Positions 9,825-60,210 of a DNA stretch of 64,000 nt are shown piece by piece. The stretch lies in NCBI GenBank assembly GCA_021804095.1, contig JAJZKQ010000001.1:17993-81992 (forward strand), given 5' to 3'. The notes beneath the pieces are model-generated. The model did no database searches. It was given only the letters and a program-made list of their open reading frames with translations, and had not been told where the DNA came from. Source of the DNA: Candidatus Micrarchaeota archaeon (GTDB taxonomy: Archaea; Micrarchaeota; Micrarchaeia; Micrarchaeales; CABMGC01). The position numbers and the translations under genes are program-made. The number at the start of each line of letters is the position of its first letter. Position 1 is the stretch's first letter.

Positions 9825-9981
9825 AAGTGGTTCAGATATGGATTCTCATGTAAGATATAAATAATAATTTTTTGCCTGGCCTGTCCGGAAGATTGCACAT
9901 GAAAAATTATGAATGGTAATACGCCTATATAAAGATGCGAATATGGTATAAATAACTAGTAGTCATGATAAGTATCTGGTT

Positions 9982-10617
9982 GTGGGTGTCTGTCTGGAAG
10001 GAGCTTTGATATGTATTGAAGGAGTAGACGGAGCTGGTAAGAGTACTCAGACAGAGATGCTTGCTAAAAGGCTGAAAGATTCCAGATCTAAAGTAATAGT
10101 TTACAACTATCCAGATTATTCATCAAGGTATGGGAAGATAATAAAGGATTATCTCTATGGAAAAATAGATATGGAAAACGATGAATTCTTCTTCTTGCAG
10201 ATGCTCGACAAGCAGAAGGACAGAACTAGGATAAGAAACGATATGAATGAAGGAAGCACAGTAATTATGAACAGATATATACACTCGCAGATAGCTTACC
10301 AGTGTGCTTCTGGATTCGATTATGAAAGTGCAAAGAGGATCATCAATCTCTCCAAGATGCCTCTTCCAGACATAGTCGTATACATAGACGTTGATATAGG
10401 AACAGCTTTGAAAAGAAAGAAGATACAGAAGTCAGGCAACCTTGATAGGAATGAAAAATCCGAGGAGTATCTTGAAAAAGTTAGAAATATTTACAAAAAA
10501 CTTGAATCGGAGAAATTTGGATGTGGGAAGTGGCTCAGAGTAGATGGTAACAGAGAGTACTCAGTCATACATGAGGAAATATATATGGAAGTCTGCAACA
10601 TATTAAAAGTATGGTGA
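9982..10617 (+). CDS. tmk: Thymidylate kinase
   Basis: 211 aa (GTG start in the track). P-loop IEGVDGAGKSTQ and a typical dTMP kinase layout. Confidence 0.9.
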   Translation: MGVCLEGALICIEGVDGAGKSTQTEMLAKRLKDSRSKVIVYNYPDYSSRYGKIIKDYLYGKIDMENDEFFFLQMLDKQKDRTRIRNDMNEGSTVIMNRYIHSQIAYQCASGFDYESAKRIINLSKMPLPDIVVYIDVDIGTALKRKKIQKSGNLDRNEKSEEYLEKVRNIYKKLESEKFGCGKWLRVDGNREYSVIHEEIYMEVCNILKVW

Positions 10618-17198: not shown

Positions 17199-17876
17199 TT
17201 ATTTTTTTGAATTGGGGCCGTTGCTGTTTATTAGGCGCTTTACCGCCTCAAATGCTGTTGCTGTATCCATCTCCGATATTATAAAGATCTCTTCGGTAAG
17301 AGTTGAGACTACTTCATAGATATTGATGTTTTCCCAGCCGAGCGCTTTTGTTAGAAGATAAAGAAGACCTACCGACTCCGCTGTTTTTTCTGGAATCCGC
17401 ACTATTACAGATGAAAGGCCTGTGCTCTTCTTCTTTATCTCTTTTTTTTCGAATAAGGCCAGTATTTCATTCATATATTTTACATTTGAAAGTACAGTTA
17501 TCTCATAAAGCCCCTGTGTTACAGTTAAAAAATCTCCTGCGCCGAAATTTATCAAGTCGTATAGTTTTGGGATTATCTTTAAGGTATTTGCAGATTTCAC
17601 AGCGGTTATCTCGAATATTCCTGAAGTTATGGTAATGTCTGCATGACTTAGGTCTGGCTGGGGCTGCCCCACAAAGCTCTCTTTAAGCTCCTCTGAGAAT
17701 CTTCGTATTGCCATTATTATGGCATAACGATTGACTTCTCTGCGCATGGCATGTTCTACTTCAGGCTTTATCATATCTGCAAGATATGCATAATTTATTA
17801 TGTCATTTACTAGGGCTTCTTCTAGGAAGGGGCGTTTTTGTATTATTCCAGACACTACATGTGCAACAGTTACCAT
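17199..17876 (-). CDS. Conserved-looking cytoplasmic protein with ACT-like C-terminal repeats (function unknown)
   Basis: 225 aa, a clean ORF with no competing frame. The beta-alpha-beta-like repeats (ITITSGIFEITAV..., SSVIVRIPEKTAESVGLLYLLTKALGWENINIYEVVS) suggest ACT domains. The family is not firmly recognised. Confidence 0.4.
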   Translation of the reverse strand: MVTVAHVVSGIIQKRPFLEEALVNDIINYAYLADMIKPEVEHAMRREVNRYAIIMAIRRFSEELKESFVGQPQPDLSHADITITSGIFEITAVKSANTLKIIPKLYDLINFGAGDFLTVTQGLYEITVLSNVKYMNEILALFEKKEIKKKSTGLSSVIVRIPEKTAESVGLLYLLTKALGWENINIYEVVSTLTEEIFIISEMDTATAFEAVKRLINSNGPNSKK

Positions 17877-37462: not shown

Positions 37463-37567
37463 GGGCTTGTAGCGCAACGGCAGCGCGCCTGCATGGCATG
37501 CAGGAGGTTGCGGGTTCAAAAAAAACCTTCCCGTATTGAGAGGTTTATGGAATTCCCGCCAAGTCCA
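37463..37567 (+). tRNA. tRNA-Ala (anticodon GGC) with 33-nt insertion in the T-loop
   Basis: Acceptor GGGCUUG/CAAGUCC with the G3:U70 Ala identity pair. D arm GCGC-AACGGCA-GCGC, anticodon arm CCUGC-AUGGCAU-GCAGG. T stem GCGGG (37510-14) + UUCAAA, then about 33 nt (37521-37553) before U-CCCGC (37554-59). Confidence 0.75.
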
Positions 37568-41009: not shown

Positions 41010-42263
41010 TTAGCCGGCCTCGTTTTCCTCCTTTGTTGCTTCAACAGTGTGCTGTTCATCTTCCTTGAATATGGTCTTCTCTATGAGCTCCTTTATTTTC
41101 TGGGGAGGATATGCGAGTTTTATAAGTTTTGTATGCCCTCTTATTCCTTTTCCTGATTCGTAGGAGATTATTATGCCTTGCATGTTTAGATCTGCTATGT
41201 ATCTCCTGTAGAGCCTTGTGCTTTTTGCTTCTTTGTTTAACGAGCTTGCAATGGAATGATATCTGTTGTATATCTCCCCGCTAAGAACAAAAGAATCGTC
41301 GCCTTCATTAAGTTTTTTGTACCTGCTCCCGTTTATTGTCATTAAGGCTATGGCGTATACTATAAGCCGCTGATGCTCAGGCAGCGTGTTTATTATCTCG
41401 TAGGCAATCTCCTCCTCTGCCGATTTTGCAGCCTCGGATATTTCTTTTGTAGTTACATTCTGGAGGTTTCTTTCCTCCGAGAGCTCGCCTGCTTTCGTTA
41501 TTATCTTAAGTGCAAGGCGTGCGTCTCCGCTCTCTTTAGCTGAAATTGCAGCAGTTAAACTTACGCATGCAGGGTCTACAACTCCTGCTTTGAAGCCTTT
41601 TTCTACCCTGTCTTTTATTATTGCTGAAAGTTCCTGCGAATTGTATGGAGGGAATGCAAGTTCCTTTTCATAAAGGGTAGAGAGGCTTCTTGGATCTAGA
41701 TCTTCCTTGAATGAAACCCTGTTGGATATGCCTACCATTGTTATCCCTCCGGACTTCATATCGCTGTTTGCCCTGGATAGCGTGTATATGAGATCGTCCA
41801 GATCTTTTATCATATCTATTTCATCTAGAATTACTATTAGCATGCGGTTGTCTTCCTCTACCCAGTTTATTACCTTTTCATATATGTCTATGACTCCATA
41901 GCCTCGTTTTGCATACATTGGGATATGATCAGTAGCTATCTTGCTGAGCACCCTGTATCTTGAGTTGTATACCCTGCAGTTTATGTAGGATATCTCGGCT
42001 TTTATCATAGGAAGCTTTCTTATCTGTTCTATTATGTATTTCATGCATGAGGTCTTTCCCGTACCTGTTTTTCCGTAAATGAAGACATTTCTTCCCCTTT
42101 CGCCGCGCAGTGATGGCGTTATGGCGTTCTCTATTTCGGATATCTGTTTGTCTCTGAAGAGTAGATTATGAGGTATATAATGAGGGGAGAGAACCTCTCG
42201 GTTGGCAAATATAATTGATTCCTTGAATAAAGACTCGAATCCTTTTCCCAAGCTATCTACCAA
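41010..42263 (-). CDS. cdc6: Orc1/Cdc6 replication initiator
   Basis: 417 aa. Walker A GKTGTGKTS, Walker B VILDEID, sensor region, and a C-terminal winged helix. Confidence 0.9.
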   Translation of the reverse strand: MVDSLGKGFESLFKESIIFANREVLSPHYIPHNLLFRDKQISEIENAITPSLRGERGRNVFIYGKTGTGKTSCMKYIIEQIRKLPMIKAEISYINCRVYNSRYRVLSKIATDHIPMYAKRGYGVIDIYEKVINWVEEDNRMLIVILDEIDMIKDLDDLIYTLSRANSDMKSGGITMVGISNRVSFKEDLDPRSLSTLYEKELAFPPYNSQELSAIIKDRVEKGFKAGVVDPACVSLTAAISAKESGDARLALKIITKAGELSEERNLQNVTTKEISEAAKSAEEEIAYEIINTLPEHQRLIVYAIALMTINGSRYKKLNEGDDSFVLSGEIYNRYHSIASSLNKEAKSTRLYRRYIADLNMQGIIISYESGKGIRGHTKLIKLAYPPQKIKELIEKTIFKEDEQHTVEATKEENEAG

Positions 42264-43050
42264 CTATCTTTTTTGCTATTTCGGAATATTCGTTTTTTAT
42301 TTCTTTGTCTTCCTGTGCTGGAATCTTGCCCGAGTCGCTTAGCCTGCCGAATTTTGGATCTGAGCTTATGCTACCTAGGAAATCACATTGGAGTTTTTCG
42401 GCAACCTCCCTGCCTCCTGTGCCGCTCCCGTCAGACATGTTTTCAATAACCCCCAATATTGATACGTTCAGCCTTCTTGCCATGCCTCCGGATCTTATCG
42501 TGTTTACTGCAGATATGTGCTGTGGCGTTGTAACAAGGATGAAGCCGTCTAAGTCGAGAAGCTGGATTAGGGAGAGAGGAGCATCTGATGTGCCTGGAGG
42601 AAGATCTATTATAAGATAATCGAGGGTTCCCCATTCTGTATTTTCGAAGAATTCTGATATCATCTTGCCTATCATTGGGCCTCTCCATATTATTGGCGCT
42701 TTCAAGTCATCAACAAGCATAGCTGTTGATAGGATTTTTATTCCGTCTTTTTCAACAGGCATAAGCGGATACTCACCTGACAAGGTATCATTTATACCCA
42801 AGAATAGTGTGAGATTTGGGCAGTCCACATCCGCATCGAGAAGACCTACTTTGTAACCCATCTCTTTTAGCAAATATGCCAGATTGACTGAAGTTGTGGT
42901 CTTTCCAACGCCTCCTTTAGCGCTGTATATGCCTATTTTGTGCTTTATTCCTGATAGCTTTTCCCTGAGCCTCTTCTTCTGTTCTATCACTTTTAGGATT
43001 GACGGATGAGGCTTTGGAAGGCTATCTGGGTTTCTTTTTTCATCTTCCAA
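42253..43050 (-). CDS. Mrp/NBP35/ApbC-family Fe-S cluster carrier ATPase
   Basis: 265 aa with the deviant Walker A YSAKGGVGKTT. Overlaps the cdc6 start by 11 nt. Confidence 0.85.
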   Translation of the reverse strand: MEDEKRNPDSLPKPHPSILKVIEQKKRLREKLSGIKHKIGIYSAKGGVGKTTTSVNLAYLLKEMGYKVGLLDADVDCPNLTLFLGINDTLSGEYPLMPVEKDGIKILSTAMLVDDLKAPIIWRGPMIGKMISEFFENTEWGTLDYLIIDLPPGTSDAPLSLIQLLDLDGFILVTTPQHISAVNTIRSGGMARRLNVSILGVIENMSDGSGTGGREVAEKLQCDFLGSISSDPKFGRLSDSGKIPAQEDKEIKNEYSEIAKKIVGR

Positions 43051-47565: not shown

Positions 47566-47902
47566 TTGATGCACTTCATTGAATGCGTTATAACACATAT
47601 TAATAGGATATTTGTTATTGTGACGTCCTCCCGCCCGTAAACGGTGTGGGCATAGATCCTGAATTTGTAGGCTCTTGCCAATTCAATGAAGTTTATATCG
47701 TTATTCATGTTTATACACTTTTCTGCGGTTCGCTCTCATCCTACCCTTGAAGAGTGTGGGATTTCAAGCTTACGGTGATGACTTTTGAATTTACTGGTCA
47801 AGACAGGCATAACTTGCTTTGTTATATCTGCCCGAGGTACTTTGTACTATTATATTATATGTTTTGGTGCATATGTATTAAAATAAAATTATAAGTGATA
47901 GC

Positions 47903-55571: not shown

Positions 55572-55856
55572 TTATCTTGCTTTTATTTCTATTTTCTTTT
55601 TTGTTCTTCCTCCAAAAACCCTTTCTACTGATTTTTTACATTTTGAGCATTCTAAGACAACTTTCTGCCTCTTGCCTAGCTTTTTAGGATGGATTTTAGG
55701 TTCTATGCTGCCGACATAGCCTTTTATTACCCTGTTGTGCCTTCTTGTGGCTTTGCCCAGGCCCCGCTGCTTGCCTTTAGATGCTATTTTTGCAGTATGG
55801 AGCGTGTGCTCGTTGCAGTATGGACAGTAGATGTTGATTTCTCTTCTTATTTTCAT
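55572..55856 (-). CDS. rpl44e: Ribosomal protein L44e
   Basis: 94 aa. YCPYCNEHTLH...LECSKCKKS zinc ribbon with a basic composition. Confidence 0.9.
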   Translation of the reverse strand: MKIRREINIYCPYCNEHTLHTAKIASKGKQRGLGKATRRHNRVIKGYVGSIEPKIHPKKLGKRQKVVLECSKCKKSVERVFGGRTKKKIEIKAR

Positions 55857-56329
55857 ACAATCACTTTTTCTCCTAGTTTGTTCTCTATTAAGAATTCTGT
55901 TTCTTTTTCACTTTCCGGGCTTATTATACTGTCTTTTACAAAAGGCCCTATCTTTTTGCCCTCCGGTGTTATCAGTTCGGGCATATCGGATGTTATTTTT
56001 ATCTTTGTCTTTTTATTTCCGGCTTTCTCTTCTTTAATTATATTGTTTATACGTATATATAACCTTTCTTCTTCTTCGGGTATCTGTGCGGGGAGGTTCC
56101 TGCCATAGGCGATGTATGTGAGTATTTTCTGCAGGCGTTTTGCTTTTAGAGATTCTATAAGCCTGTCGTGGTTTTCCTTCTGTTTTCCGGCAGTTCCTGT
56201 TTCGGATTCTTCAGTTTCGATCTGGTTTTTACTATAGAAGTCTCTGCCAAGGGGAAGGAGTTCCCCTGTTCTGCGCTCTCTTTCTAATACTGCAAATATT
56301 TCCTCAGTTGAAACAGAATCACCCAACAT
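55853..56329 (-). CDS. GINS subunit (Gins51/Gins15-like)
   Basis: 158 aa. A-domain pattern EIFAVLERERRTGELLPLGRDFY...LKAKRLQKILTYIA. B-domain pattern KIKITSDMPELITPEGKKIGPFVKDSIISPESEKETEFLIENKLGEKV. Confidence 0.65.
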   Translation of the reverse strand: MLGDSVSTEEIFAVLERERRTGELLPLGRDFYSKNQIETEESETGTAGKQKENHDRLIESLKAKRLQKILTYIAYGRNLPAQIPEEEERLYIRINNIIKEEKAGNKKTKIKITSDMPELITPEGKKIGPFVKDSIISPESEKETEFLIENKLGEKVIV

Positions 56330-56343
56330 ACCATATACCCTGT

Positions 56344-56442
56344 ATTTCCACTATTATTTAACAGGATCTTTTCTCAAATATAACTCTGTTATCAGAATAT
56401 ACTAATTACATATTATATAAAAAGAAAACAAATAGTGGAAAT
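56344..56442. other. Candidate replication-origin core: perfect 12-bp inverted ORB-like repeats flanking a 75-bp AT-rich spacer
   Basis: ATTTCCACTATT (56344-56355) and AATAGTGGAAAT (56431-56442) are exact reverse complements. Each is followed outward by a G-run (GTGGGGT on the right, ACAGGGT on the left reverse complement). A degenerate third copy TAGTGAAAT lies at 56481-56489. Confidence 0.35.
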
Positions 56443-56514
56443 GTGGGGTCCAGGTTGTCTTTTTTAATAATATTTTAATATAGTGAAATAGTCTCTTGAC
56501 AATGTAGGTCTGTA

Positions 56515-56589
56515 TAGCGGGGAGTGGATTTGAACCACCGTTCTCTGGGTTATGAGCCCAGCGGGCACTCCGAGCTACCCTACCCCGCT
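56515..56589 (-). tRNA. Initiator tRNA-Met (anticodon CAU)
   Basis: It has an A1:U72 acceptor end (AGCGGGG/CCCCGCU). The anticodon arm CUGGG-CUCAUAA-CCCAG carries three G:C pairs. Both are archaeal initiator hallmarks. T arm GGUGG-UUCAAAU-CCACU. Confidence 0.9.
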
Positions 56590-56601
56590 ACTGATTCAGT
56601 T

Positions 56602-57312: not shown

Positions 57313-57602
57313 ATTTATCGACCCAGAACAAAACGCAAACAGAGAAAACCTGTTTATAAACATATATTATGTTATTTAGGTATATATACCTTATCCAAAA
57401 CGCGTCCCTATAGTTAAGTCTATCAGCGTGAACACCAAACACCATACGCCTGTCGTTGGGTGCACGCCACACCCCGCAGTTTTCTTGGTGTTTGGAATGT
57501 TCTATAACACCACACCGCAGGGCAGCCAACCACAAGGAATTCCAAACCCACAAAACATGCGAAAAAGATATATCCATAAGCAACGTAGCATTCTATGTTG
57601 GT

Positions 57603-58064
57603 ATGTCAATAAAATACTGGGAATTCGAAGACGCTCCCCTCAGGGAAAAGCTAAAAAACCCAAGCGTCAAGGAGATAGCCAAAATATATTTTGACAACGA
57701 AACGAAGGCATACCGCTTTGCCCTAGCTCTTGACTCGGTAAAACACGCGAAAGAACTCAGGCTAAAGGACTGTTCCACCCAGCTTCCCATTCCAACCTGG
57801 AAGCGTTATCTCGATTATGGGGTATCTGTGGGTCTTTTAAAACACGAAAATAACACATACAGTTTTACAGACAGATACTCCCGTCCTCTAAAGAACATAT
57901 CTACCTATATAAAAGCCTGGGTAGAAACGGACACCAACGAGGACCTTAATATAATATTTGCAAACGCTAAAACTGAAAAACAGAAACCAAGAACAAGCAA
58001 AAAAACAGACGGACAAGCACAAAACGCAAATAGCGAAAGCACGGAACAAAACAGGCAGGCATAA
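57603..58064 (+). CDS. Hypothetical protein, wHTH-like, Lys/Gln/Asn-rich tail
   Basis: ATG 57603 (MSIKYWEFEDAPL...). The track begins at TTG 57456, adding a Cys/His-containing 49 aa (WCLEC...H...H...C). The start is unresolved. Confidence 0.5.
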   Translation: MSIKYWEFEDAPLREKLKNPSVKEIAKIYFDNETKAYRFALALDSVKHAKELRLKDCSTQLPIPTWKRYLDYGVSVGLLKHENNTYSFTDRYSRPLKNISTYIKAWVETDTNEDLNIIFANAKTEKQKPRTSKKTDGQAQNANSESTEQNRQA

Positions 58065-58258
58065 CGGTTATTAATAATTATCCTGCCAAACTCTAATATC
58101 GAAACAGTGATCTTCTGGGACTAAGTGAAGCTGAACTCATAGAAAAAGAACTTACAATAAGGAACCTAAGGCTCAGCCGTGAAGCGGTAGAAACCCGAAG
58201 GTCAGCAGTACGATGGCTCGCACTCTCTCTAGGGATCATAAACTCCGGCGAATCAAGA

Positions 58259-58585
58259 ATGGGATCTCTTGCGGTCTTGGACTCCATGGTATACTTCCAG
58301 TTTATCAGGAAACAAGATCCCACAGTAAAAGAGATGTCAGAATATATAGGCAAAAACTGGAAGCCGATAAATGAGAAAACACTTAGATATCATCTCTTAC
58401 GCATGAAAAAAATGGGCTTTCTTGAAAACGGGGAAGGAAAATTCAGTTTCAAACATCCAGCAGCCGGAGACCGGTTTGATGCATATAACTGGTCTTCCAG
58501 TATTTTTGATTCGTTTTACAAGGAAGTATCCGCAAAAATAGGGGAAGTTGTGAAAGAGATAAAAAACAAGAACGCAGTGATATGA
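58259..58585 (+). CDS. Small winged-helix DNA-binding protein
   Basis: 108 aa. VKEMSEYIGKNWKPINEKTLRYHLLRMKKMGFLENGEGKFSF. The frame is open a further 162 nt upstream without ATG/GTG/TTG. Confidence 0.55.
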   Translation: MGSLAVLDSMVYFQFIRKQDPTVKEMSEYIGKNWKPINEKTLRYHLLRMKKMGFLENGEGKFSFKHPAAGDRFDAYNWSSSIFDSFYKEVSAKIGEVVKEIKNKNAVI

Positions 58586-60210
58586 ATCTGTATGGTGCCA
58601 CAATGAAAAAAGAAATATACTACTGGATTGTACTTATTGTAATAATATTGGGAACAGCATTCTACGTTAGATTAAACTATAACCCCAAAACATCAGTATC
58701 GCTAAACTTCTCCTCCTCAGCTTCCAATACCACCATATACCAATACCAACAAGCCACGTTGGAACTACAAGTACTTAACAACGGCCCCACAGTGAAAGGA
58801 CTAACTGTAGGCCTATCGCTAAACGGAAATCTAACTGACATATATAACGTATCTTTGCCTACCGGAAAAGGAACAATGATAAAAATAACACACACGTTCG
58901 GAACCCCCGGCATATACAATTTTACTGCAGAAACAGACCCTACAAAACTATACAACAACATAAACCAAGCATCAACCAGCATTACTGTCTCTGTTCTTCC
59001 TCCAGAAAAAGCAGAGCCTCAGACGCTGCTTCCCGCAAACCAGACTGACTTCTACGCCTCAAACATGACAATTTTAGGCTATGGTATCTCTTCGTATCTA
59101 AATAAAAACTACAGCGTAAGCCAGACAAAACTTTCCAATATCCTTCCAGTCAATATATTCATGGATCGTCTATTCACAATCGGCGGAAGCTATATAGAAA
59201 ACATATCAACAGCAAGCGCGGAGTATAATAACGGGAGAGGCCTCTCCCTGTGGTTCGACGGATATCTTAAACCTTCAATAATCGGAGTATCAGCCCAAGC
59301 CGAAAATCTGACAGTTTCCAACCAGACAATAGGAACCCAACCTATCTCTCTGATAAGGGTTTCGCCAAACGTGACAACATGCAGCTGGTATTCTTCCGGA
59401 TGGATAAAGACCTTCTCCTGGGAAGGAAACTCAACCTGCGCCGAAATCCTGAAAGAGAATCCTACAGGAATTTCAGAAAACAACACACTTAAAAAACTTC
59501 TTACCTTCCAAAACAACACCATTTCCCTTGAAAACTTCTACGAAAAAAACAACACAAGTTCCAGATATGGAAATCTTATAGTCACAGGAAAAGACGCCCT
59601 TGCATATTATACTCTCTGGGACAATTATACTGAAAACCACACCTGCTATGGTCTCACAGACACTTTCAATTCAAGCTCCTTCTGCAGTGTCTACATGCTG
59701 CAAAATTCAGGCAGCTTGGGAAACGTCTCCCTCATACGCACAACGGAATATCTAGGCAAATACAACATAAGCGTATTTTCAATAACAAACTCTTCAACAA
59801 ACCCATTCAACCAGGTAAGCAACAACATAGGCATGATACAAAACCTAAAACTACAAGGAGACTCAATAAACTTCACTTCAGGCCTTTCAAATACATGTGA
59901 TTTCACAGGAGTAGTTTCGTGCGGCACACCGACATTCGCCAACAGCTCAATATCACTGAACCTAACAAACATCGCAAATCAGACAATCAGGCTAAATTCA
60001 ATCGGTTGTTTCATGTCAGGAATAGGCCCAGGATCGCTTATCAACAAGACACTTGCAGCAGGAGCATCTACACAAATAACAACAGAGTGCTACAACAACA
60101 GCAAGACCATAAATGCCATACCACTAAACCTGCAGCTCAGGATTCTATTAAACTATACTGAAAATAACGTTTCAGATACGATGCAGGGAGGCGCACTCAT
60201 AACAATATGA
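58582..60210 (+). CDS. Large secreted/surface protein, N-terminal TM anchor, heavily N-glycosylation-sequon-rich
   Basis: 542 aa. Anchor KKEIYYWIVLIVIILGTAFYV, with roughly 30 N-x-S/T sequons counted by eye and several Cys pairs. ATGA overlap with the upstream gene. Confidence 0.65.
   Translation: MNLYGATMKKEIYYWIVLIVIILGTAFYVRLNYNPKTSVSLNFSSSASNTTIYQYQQATLELQVLNNGPTVKGLTVGLSLNGNLTDIYNVSLPTGKGTMIKITHTFGTPGIYNFTAETDPTKLYNNINQASTSITVSVLPPEKAEPQTLLPANQTDFYASNMTILGYGISSYLNKNYSVSQTKLSNILPVNIFMDRLFTIGGSYIENISTASAEYNNGRGLSLWFDGYLKPSIIGVSAQAENLTVSNQTIGTQPISLIRVSPNVTTCSWYSSGWIKTFSWEGNSTCAEILKENPTGISENNTLKKLLTFQNNTISLENFYEKNNTSSRYGNLIVTGKDALAYYTLWDNYTENHTCYGLTDTFNSSSFCSVYMLQNSGSLGNVSLIRTTEYLGKYNISVFSITNSSTNPFNQVSNNIGMIQNLKLQGDSINFTSGLSNTCDFTGVVSCGTPTFANSSISLNLTNIANQTIRLNSIGCFMSGIGPGSLINKTLAAGASTQITTECYNNSKTINAIPLNLQLRILLNYTENNVSDTMQGGALITI

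Follow-up and report, generated by a model that had tools for sequence, protein, structure and literature searches.

A conserved inverted-box module between a GINS-like gene and the initiator tRNA gene as the predicted chromosomal replication origin of a Candidatus Micrarchaeota archaeon

INTRODUCTION

At oriC1 of Sulfolobus, two inverted origin recognition boxes (ORBs), ORB2 and ORB3, flank an AT-rich duplex-unwinding element (DUE) within a unit of 130 bp; a single monomer of Orc1-1 binds each box in a defined polarity, and neither box is dispensable in vivo (PMC12141716). Orc1-1 covaries with its boxes between Sulfolobus species (PMC3607249), and a G-string has been described as a component of the ORB (PMC1868953; PMC4010727). 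For Pyrococcus, Matsunaga et al. reported gel shifts with oligonucleotides representing P. furiosus ORB1, ORB2, ORB3, and mini-ORB, all bound by Pyrococcus Cdc6/Orc1 (PMC1904270). Adjacency of the origin to orc1/cdc6 is usual but not universal, the exceptions being Thermococcus litoralis and T. sibiricus (PMC4640148). Searches of the literature on origins found none described for Micrarchaeota or close DPANN relatives and yielded only a skew-based, cdc6-adjacent prediction in a Diapherotrite. Here, a 64,000-nucleotide stretch of a Candidatus Micrarchaeota genome (contig JAJZKQ010000001.1; referred to as the window, with positions numbered along its + strand) was analyzed around an inverted repeat that separates a GINS-like gene from the initiator tRNA gene. 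We predict that this module is where chromosome replication starts in the Micrarchaeon and, given its conservation, in the phylum, where it would probably function as a minimal ORB-DUE-ORB unit of the Orc1-1 type.

RESULTS AND DISCUSSION

Two inverted boxes flank an AT-rich spacer next to GINS

Positions 56344-56355 hold the left arm of the repeat, ATTTCCACTATT, and positions 56431-56442 hold its exact reverse complement, AATAGTGGAAAT, as read from the sequence. The 75 bp between the arms (56356-56430) have a GC content of 0.20, compared with 0.41 for the window. On the outer side of each arm lies a G-run, giving two inverted 19-bp boxes: the distal ORB-like box, on the tRNA side, reads AATAGTGGAAAT-GTGGGGT on the + strand (56431-56449) and points away from the spacer, and the proximal box, on the GINS side, reads AATAGTGGAAAT-ACAGGGT on the - strand (56355-56337) and stops 7 bp short of the GINS ATG. 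The whole unit spans ~115 bp and fills most of the 184-bp region between the GINS and tRNA genes. An initial annotation of this DNA had pointed out the perfect inverted arms, the AT-rich 75-bp spacer, and the distal G-runs, and the coordinates and letters of all three were confirmed.

Perfect 12-bp inverted repeats with spacers of 20 to 150 bp number 3 in the window against 0.55 expected, and at least one such repeat was found in 32% of simulated windows. The local probability of a repeat of this kind in this particular 184-bp intergenic region is 0.004. Taken alone, the 12-bp repeat is weak evidence, and window-wide it is not significant. The other two perfect repeats, AGATAAAGAAGA and ACTTCATTGAAT, are located at 17356-17440 and 47573-47692, with spacers of 61 bp and 96 bp, respectively. 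A chance repeat was ruled out only once the conservation of both arms and their G-strings was added.

The module is conserved across Micrarchaeota

Relatives were collected as contigs encoding homologs of the GINS-like protein, at 81% down to 45% identity, and the homologs came from Candidatus Micrarchaeota or Micrarchaeaceae metagenome-assembled genomes (MAGs), which places the window in a DPANN archaeon; a further 36 species-level genome loci were taken from GTDB representatives, nearly all labeled Candidatus Micrarchaeota (L-numbers below denote loci of related genomes). The module was found between the initiator tRNA (tRNA-iMet) and GINS in 7 metagenomic relatives and in 33 of the 36 species-level genomes, that is, in the interval between the GINS-L44e-aIF2alpha genes and tRNA-iMet of ~40 Micrarchaeota species. 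Because both arms are kept together with their G-strings in 40 related loci, the module stands above chance. The arm consensus across these loci, window included, is AATAGTGGAAAT-n-TGGGGT, and the trinucleotide GGA is invariant in 80/80 arms. The nTGGGGT part is likewise kept, apart from a subclade with the variant GAACC(G/C)T. The core-to-core spacer measures 73 to 96 bp (median, 78), and its GC content ranges from 0.12 to 0.37 (median, 0.23), compared with 0.32 to 0.54 for the whole loci. In every species compared, the proximal core ends 11 to 62 bp ahead of the GINS start. In most species, the distal box starts no more than ~30 nt from the tRNA 3' end, with an overlap of up to 3 nt. Non-conserved insertions lengthen this gap to 56 to 62 nt in the window (56450-56513) and in L001 (9745-9800) and to ~120 nt in L004 (7123-7240).

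A 28-nt weight matrix was built from the arms. The distal box, at 37.6 bits, is the top score in the window, and the proximal box reaches 29.9 bits. Had the motif been common in intergenic DNA, as the initial annotation considered, further matches would be expected; instead, there is none of at least 10 bits besides the two arms in the 64-kb window, the orc1 region included, and in 176 kb of related loci only matches of at most 12 bits occur outside the module. By the same matrix, no further box is present near orc1 or elsewhere in the window or the related loci. Degenerate occurrences of the core (8- to 9-mers with one or two mismatches) are found elsewhere in the window at chance frequency. 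They include a claimed third copy, TAGTGAAAT (56481-56489, + strand), which is unsupported: it scores below 10 bits, its one-mismatch core match is of the kind expected by chance, and it is conserved neither in L001, the closest relative, nor in L004. A possible presence of the module on viruses or plasmids was also considered and rejected: viral contigs yielded 67 matches to the two bare cores, none of them with a G-string and none above 14.5 bits, and 67 is, by our own estimate, about the number that chance would give for 18 specified bases and a gap of 31 possible values.

The two arms of one genome tend to change together at certain positions of the box. At positions 10 and 11 (GGA[A/C]N-TG), the arms agree in 100% and 50% of genomes, versus 86% and 24% expected, and the agreement at position 11 uses all four bases. 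Positions 5 and 6, in contrast, vary independently between the arms. The shared change at positions 10 and 11 suggests co-evolution with the initiator or homogenization between the arms.

The spacer is unstable and carries clade-specific blocks

The candidate DUE, the 75-bp spacer, has a nearest-neighbor stability of -78.3 kcal/mol, compared with a window mean of -96.4 (standard deviation, 5.5). Of all 75-bp regions in the 64 kb, it ranks with the 5 of lowest stability, within the least stable 0.2% of stretches. Several short blocks are embedded in it. Beside the distal box, at 56409-56430, a T-run is joined to a TATA-like block (TGTTTTCTTTTTATATAATATG on the - strand), an arrangement of T-run plus TATATAATATG that is seen in most species; it might be where melting starts, or it might be a promoter element. 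A small palindrome, ATAAC-NNN-GTTAT (56380-56392), is restricted to one clade (the window, L001, L004, L007, L012, L013, L018, L026, and L035) and is also a possible TATA box for GINS (GTTATATTT, a TATA-like block of one clade). Other clades have a different block in the spacer, AGTATTAATAAAAAGTTC, and the TATA-like sequence of another clade is TATTAATAAAAAG.

The boxes contain the core of initiator-bound Pyrococcus ORBs

The boxes were compared with the four P. furiosus oligonucleotides introduced above. A computed match showed that the 10-mer CATTTCCACT is common to the distal box and to ORB1 and ORB2, although, of 126-nt pieces drawn at random from the window, 3.9% have some 10-mer in common with the four oligonucleotides. 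All four (ORB1, ORB2, ORB3, and the mini-ORB) contain the 9-mer ATTTCCACT, which in the window is confined to the two arms. The core match carries weight because the functional core of the ORB meets the conserved core of the arms, and does so on both arms. In the orientation of the ORB, P. furiosus ORB1 reads ...TTCCAGTGGAAATGAAACTCTGGGGGG and the distal box reads AATAGTGGAAATGTGGGGT, with the exact common core AGTGGAAATG (CATTTCCACT on the other strand).

The similarity to Pyrococcus extends to the arrangement of two long ORBs as an inverted repeat. Behind the identical core, however, the Pyrococcus box continues as ...CCAGTGGAAATG...TGGGGGG, whereas the Micrarchaeota box is AATAGTGGAAATGTGGGGT: the G-string (TGGGGT or AGGGT) follows 1 to 3 bp past the core on both arms of the Micrarchaeota module and lies about 8 bp from it in Pyrococcus, that is, 7 bp further out. 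The outer-part variant of the Micrarchaeota subclade, GGAACTGAACC(G/C)T, resembles the middle part, GGAAATGAAAC, of the long Pyrococcus ORB. Pyrococcus also differs in having many 13-bp mini-ORBs, a second cluster within dp1, and an adjoining cdc6, as well as a bacterial-like GC-skew polarity (PMC1868953), which is the opposite of that at the Micrarchaeota module.

In overall plan, the module is close to oriC1 of Sulfolobus and Saccharolobus: both consist of inverted boxes around an AT-rich element, in ~115 bp here compared with 130 bp there, and the Orc1 encoded in the window is most like Orc1-1. Both also have a short conserved motif in the spacer, ATTATACAAAC (ucm) in Sulfolobus and the one-clade palindrome here; the clade-specific spacer blocks occupy positions like that of ucm but differ from it in sequence. 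Conversely, oriC1 adjoins orc1-1, whereas the Micrarchaeota module lies by GINS and tRNA-iMet with orc1 14 kb off; the module lacks a third box (ORB1), its boxes are shorter, with the G-string close to the core, and the first half of the canonical ORB dyad TCCA-N-TGGA is missing, with AATA in its place. The oriC1 regions of the haloarchaea Haloferax, Halobacterium, and Haloarcula likewise combine inverted, G-string-bearing ORBs around a primary unwinding element with an inverted GC-skew polarity and a C-rich leading strand (PMC1868953; PMC4010727). They differ in being next to cdc6/orc1 and in belonging to genomes with multiple origins and many orc paralogs, compared with one Orc1 in the window. 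The predicted origins of T. litoralis and T. sibiricus share with the module an ORB cluster set away from a single cdc6 and close to RadA (PMC4640148), but the separation there is 350 to 450 kb and results from rearrangement, compared with 10 to 14 kb in Micrarchaeota (L025 and the window, respectively).

An Orc1-1-type initiator is encoded nearby

The presumed box-binding protein, Orc1/Cdc6 (41010-42263, - strand; Pfam Cdc6_lid, Cdc6_C, and AAA), is encoded 14 kb from the boxes in the window; the distance is ~10 kb in L025. Among PDB chains, it matches S. solfataricus Orc1-1 (2qby_A) with an E value of 1.2e-63 and A. pernix ORC1 (2v1u) with 4e-59, followed by Orc1-3 (2qby_B; 6e-25) and Orc1-2 (1w5s; 2.5e-20). 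By sequence comparison, it is nearest to the ORB-binding Orc1-1 class, well ahead of Orc1-3 and Orc1-2. No second copy of orc1/cdc6 is present in the 64-kb window. The gene overlaps the end of a gene for an Mrp/NUBPL-type ParA-like ATPase (42253-43050) by 11 bp, which suggests that the initiator is co-transcribed with a P-loop ATPase.

Strand composition switches at the module independently of gene orientation

In a sliding-window profile, the GC skew seemed to shift around 54-57 kb. At third codon positions, both the GC skew (GC3) and the AT skew (AT3) change sign between 56330 and 56601. Calculated on the + strand, GC3 skew is above zero for almost every gene to the left of 56330, whichever strand the gene is on, and negative for 5 of the 6 genes to the right of 56601, the exception being a short ORF (58259-58585) at +0.02; the values for the nearest named genes are +0.10 (GINS) and -0.30 (TFE). 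When GC3 skew in the window was regressed on gene strand and side, the effect of side was -0.211 +/- 0.030 (t = -7.0), and that of gene strand only +0.03; for AT3, the side effect was +0.133 (t = 4.1). The same switch with the same polarity recurs in relatives, with GC3 differences of +0.37 in L001, +0.25 in L012, and +0.58 in L022, and also in L027, L037, L046, L047, and L049. Across 29 species, the sign of GC3 agrees in 26 and that of the AT3 difference in all 29; with gene strand corrected for, the pooled values are t = -9.3 for GC3 and t = 17.7 for AT3. Tied to one intergenic module across the phylum, this switch marks a fixed point of the replication program. At the same locus, some species, such as L010/L020, L015, and L030, have almost no skew.

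The polarity of the switch is the reverse of what the initial annotation expected. A skew minimum was anticipated at the site, but the cumulative GC skew has a maximum there, which in bacteria is the mark of the terminus. If forks do leave from the module, the leading strand would be enriched in C and A at third codon positions, with a polarity inverted relative to bacteria. Both polarities have been reported at archaeal origins. Norais et al. found inverted GC skew, with an excess of C on the leading strand, in four haloarchaea with genetically mapped origins, and the bacterial rule in Pyrococcus (PMC1868953). According to Paravel et al., the correlation between third-position skew and gene-strand bias in archaeal chromosomes varies in sign (mean, -0.17 +/- 0.61); for H. 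volcanii it is strongly negative, with an inversion at a mapped origin (PMC12999951). Skew by itself is compatible with an origin or a terminus, and its polarity was dropped as an arbiter between the two. An inverted polarity does not refute an origin, since it is documented at mapped haloarchaeal origins and the sign of archaeal skew is variable.

A probable replication origin and alternative functions of the module

The oriC reading proposed in the initial annotation gains support from the P. furiosus ORB core followed by a G-string, the outward-facing boxes, and an AT-rich spacer of constrained length, as well as from the uniqueness of the boxes by weight matrix in the window and related loci and the gene-strand-independent skew switch at the same intergenic region. 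For Orc1 binding, MCM loading, initiation, and regulatory coupling, we infer the following course. One Orc1-1-type monomer, supplied from the gene 14 kb off, would bind each inverted box, AATAGTGGAAAT-n-TGGGGT. In co-crystals of the A. pernix and S. solfataricus proteins, the winged-helix domain reportedly sits on the core and the AAA+ initiator-specific motif on the G-string; in the Micrarchaeota boxes, the winged-helix domain would likewise contact the core and the initiator-specific motif the G-string. The two bound initiators would face the 73- to 96-bp AT-rich spacer, their ATP form would load MCM there, and the spacer would melt. Forks departing both ways would set the strand-composition switch. 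Given that the proximal box lies just ahead of GINS and that the spacer contains TATA-like blocks, it is probable that the bound initiator modulates the expression of the GINS-L44e-aIF2alpha operon at the level of transcription as well.

The predicted origin departs from the textbook in its distance of 10 to 14 kb from orc1, its site between tRNA-iMet and GINS, its two boxes, the compact spacing of core and G-string, and the inverted polarity. Several observations count against it. The module is not next to orc1/cdc6, and it comprises two boxes only, with no mini-ORB cluster. The G/T-rich strand runs 5' to 3' toward the module on both sides, which underlies the maximum of cumulative GC skew and is the chief point against an origin, though not a decisive one. 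Co-directionality of genes with outgoing forks is weak, at 56% of genes pooled over the species and 49% in the window, and tRNA-iMet and TFE point toward the site.

The maximum and the G/T-rich polarity of GC3 and AT3 would fit a terminus, at which leading strands of the bacterial type converge and the boxes form a barrier or a site related to resolution. In keeping with this, the genes between 1 and 40 kb of the window are mostly on the strand pointing to the site, and thermophilic archaea, for example Pyrococcus, have been reported to follow the bacterial polarity (PMC1868953). The boxes nevertheless carry the ORB core to which initiators bind, and the anatomy is that of an origin, with inverted boxes around a 73- to 96-bp AT-rich element, and is not dif-like. 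A dif site has two ~11-bp arms around 6 to 8 bp; here the arms are 73 to 96 bp apart in 40/40 species, although no search aimed at dif was made. The palindrome in the spacer was also rejected as a dif site, with 5-bp arms around 3 bp and a presence in one clade only. We know of no site-specific terminator in archaea, and a terminus held phylum-wide in one spacer beside GINS, with gyrase, RadA, and Orc1 near, would be unprecedented. Moreover, the inverted polarity is documented at true haloarchaeal origins (PMC1868953). The boxes, the AT-rich element, and the gene neighborhood argue for an origin rather than a terminus, and fork convergence at the module is judged quite improbable.

If the module had a purely transcriptional function, replication would start elsewhere, and the boxes would bind a regulator (Orc1 in the role of a transcription factor, or some other protein) by which the GINS-L44e-aIF2alpha promoter is repressed or looped. 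The constant position of the proximal core upstream of GINS, the TATA-like blocks, and the joint change of both arms at positions 10 and 11 of the box, which would be expected if a single co-evolving protein read both sites, are all compatible with it. The intragenic ORB cluster in Pyrococcus dp1 provides a parallel in that it binds Cdc6 without proven origin activity (PMC1904270). What an operator leaves unexplained is the gene-strand-independent skew switch at the same region in the window and most of the 29 species, as well as the distal box, which faces a tRNA 3' end where there is nothing to regulate; in addition, the core is that of an origin box, and a role as operator is compatible with an origin. 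The suggestion in the initial annotation of an operator in the GINS promoter stands as a possible added role, in view of the 11 to 62 bp between the proximal arm and GINS, and fares less well as the sole function, in view of the skew switch and the distal box. The proximal box, from its placement, probably does play a role in GINS transcription, but regulation to the exclusion of an origin is unlikely. The joint change of the arms could also reflect base pairing, either in a long-range RNA stem (within a tRNA-GINS read-through transcript or a GINS leader) or in a DNA cruciform, for processing or regulation. The fold z-score of -4.5 points in this direction, as do a covariation score of 0.186 versus 0.143 in shuffles (0/500 as high), 13 pairs that change on both sides, and the use of all four bases at position 11. 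Related sequences can beat shuffles without structure, however, and an inverted repeat folds well by construction. In addition, a central pair is broken in 11/40 species and another in 18/40 without compensation, 74% of cells are paired versus 71.5% in shuffles, positions 5 and 6 are independent between the arms, the loop would be 73 to 96 nt long and AT-rich, and there is no match to an Rfam family. A better fit is that a single evolving protein reads both sites and that these change in concert; a structured nucleic acid is very improbable.

The prediction of an origin at the module concerns a phylum in which origins are unstudied, although the mechanism itself would be the standard design of archaeal origins. 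A conserved origin defined by sequence would give MAGs a fixed start point and orientation and would offer a reference for peak-to-trough estimates of growth rate in uncultured symbionts from metagenomes. With two boxes in ~115 bp, the module would also be a small substrate suited to the biochemistry of Orc1 and MCM loading. The skew switch extends a replication-associated, gene-strand-independent, inverted asymmetry beyond the haloarchaea, for which inverted polarity was previously described, and bears on the debate over whether skews in archaea arise by mutation or are just a consequence of how genes are oriented (PMC12999951). A more far-reaching proposal would be a phylum-wide single two-box origin, detached from orc1 and set between the initiator tRNA and the GINS-L44e-aIF2alpha operon, whose proximal box doubles as an operator and wires together licensing, a CMG component, and translation-initiation genes. 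Such an origin would combine this wiring with a strong C/A-rich leading-strand asymmetry that does not depend on gene strand; the skews reported for most archaea are, by contrast, weak and driven by gene orientation. In this full form, the proposal is tentative and on balance rather doubtful.

Genes around the module

The locus had been described as lying between GINS and the initiator tRNA. The GINS-like gene (55853-56329, - strand; 158 aa) is the first of a GINS-L44e-aIF2alpha-PAC2 cluster. The assignment of the product to GINS is weakly supported by a match to the NCBIfam model Gins23 that falls short of the family cut-off (E value, 1.5e-5) and by a profile match to the PDB GINS chain 9moj_C with an E value of 0.038. 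The genes L44e, aIF2alpha, and PAC2 follow downstream, and an archaeal Gins15-L44E-aIF2alpha cluster has been described (PMC2643942). The placement of the 158-aa ORF in a GINS-L44e-aIF2alpha cluster lends its identity additional support. In L001 (81% identity), the conserved GINS N terminus (9899-10001) has no canonical in-frame start, and the gene caller began at an internal TTG, for a product of 132 aa. A non-canonical start or a difference in sequencing may explain this.

On the other side, ARAGORN identified a tRNA-Met(CAT) at 56514-56590 (- strand), which scores 60 bits in Rfam. It has an A1:U72 pair and a GGG/CCC anticodon stem, both marks of initiator tRNAs, which confirms that part of the description. 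A tRNA 3' end could also host an att site, but the GINS side has neither an integrase nor a variable island, and gene order there is kept across the phylum. A reading in terms of an intrinsic terminator or sigma-70 elements was set aside: the organism is an archaeon, and no run of 5 or more Ts follows the tRNA on its strand.

Genes of replication and repair are frequent in the vicinity. Besides the adjoining GINS, RadA is ~3 kb off and Lhr is close, and gyrase B/A genes lie 2 to 7 kb from the module in the relatives checked (L001 and L010-L012), with a partial gyrA in the window. TFE follows beyond the tRNA. The GINS side is syntenic phylum-wide, whereas the TFE side varies among species (window, 57456-60210, + strand; L004, 1377-5070; L010, 7339-8679), and in the window it includes ORFs of 202, 108, and 542 aa with no Pfam or NCBIfam match. 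The Rfam scan returned only tRNAs, apart from two microRNA matches far under threshold. One further Rfam tRNA match, at 37470-37534 (+ strand), scores 31 bits, just over the gathering score, with the model truncated to positions 8-63, and ARAGORN reports none there; it may represent an intron-containing or atypical tRNA.

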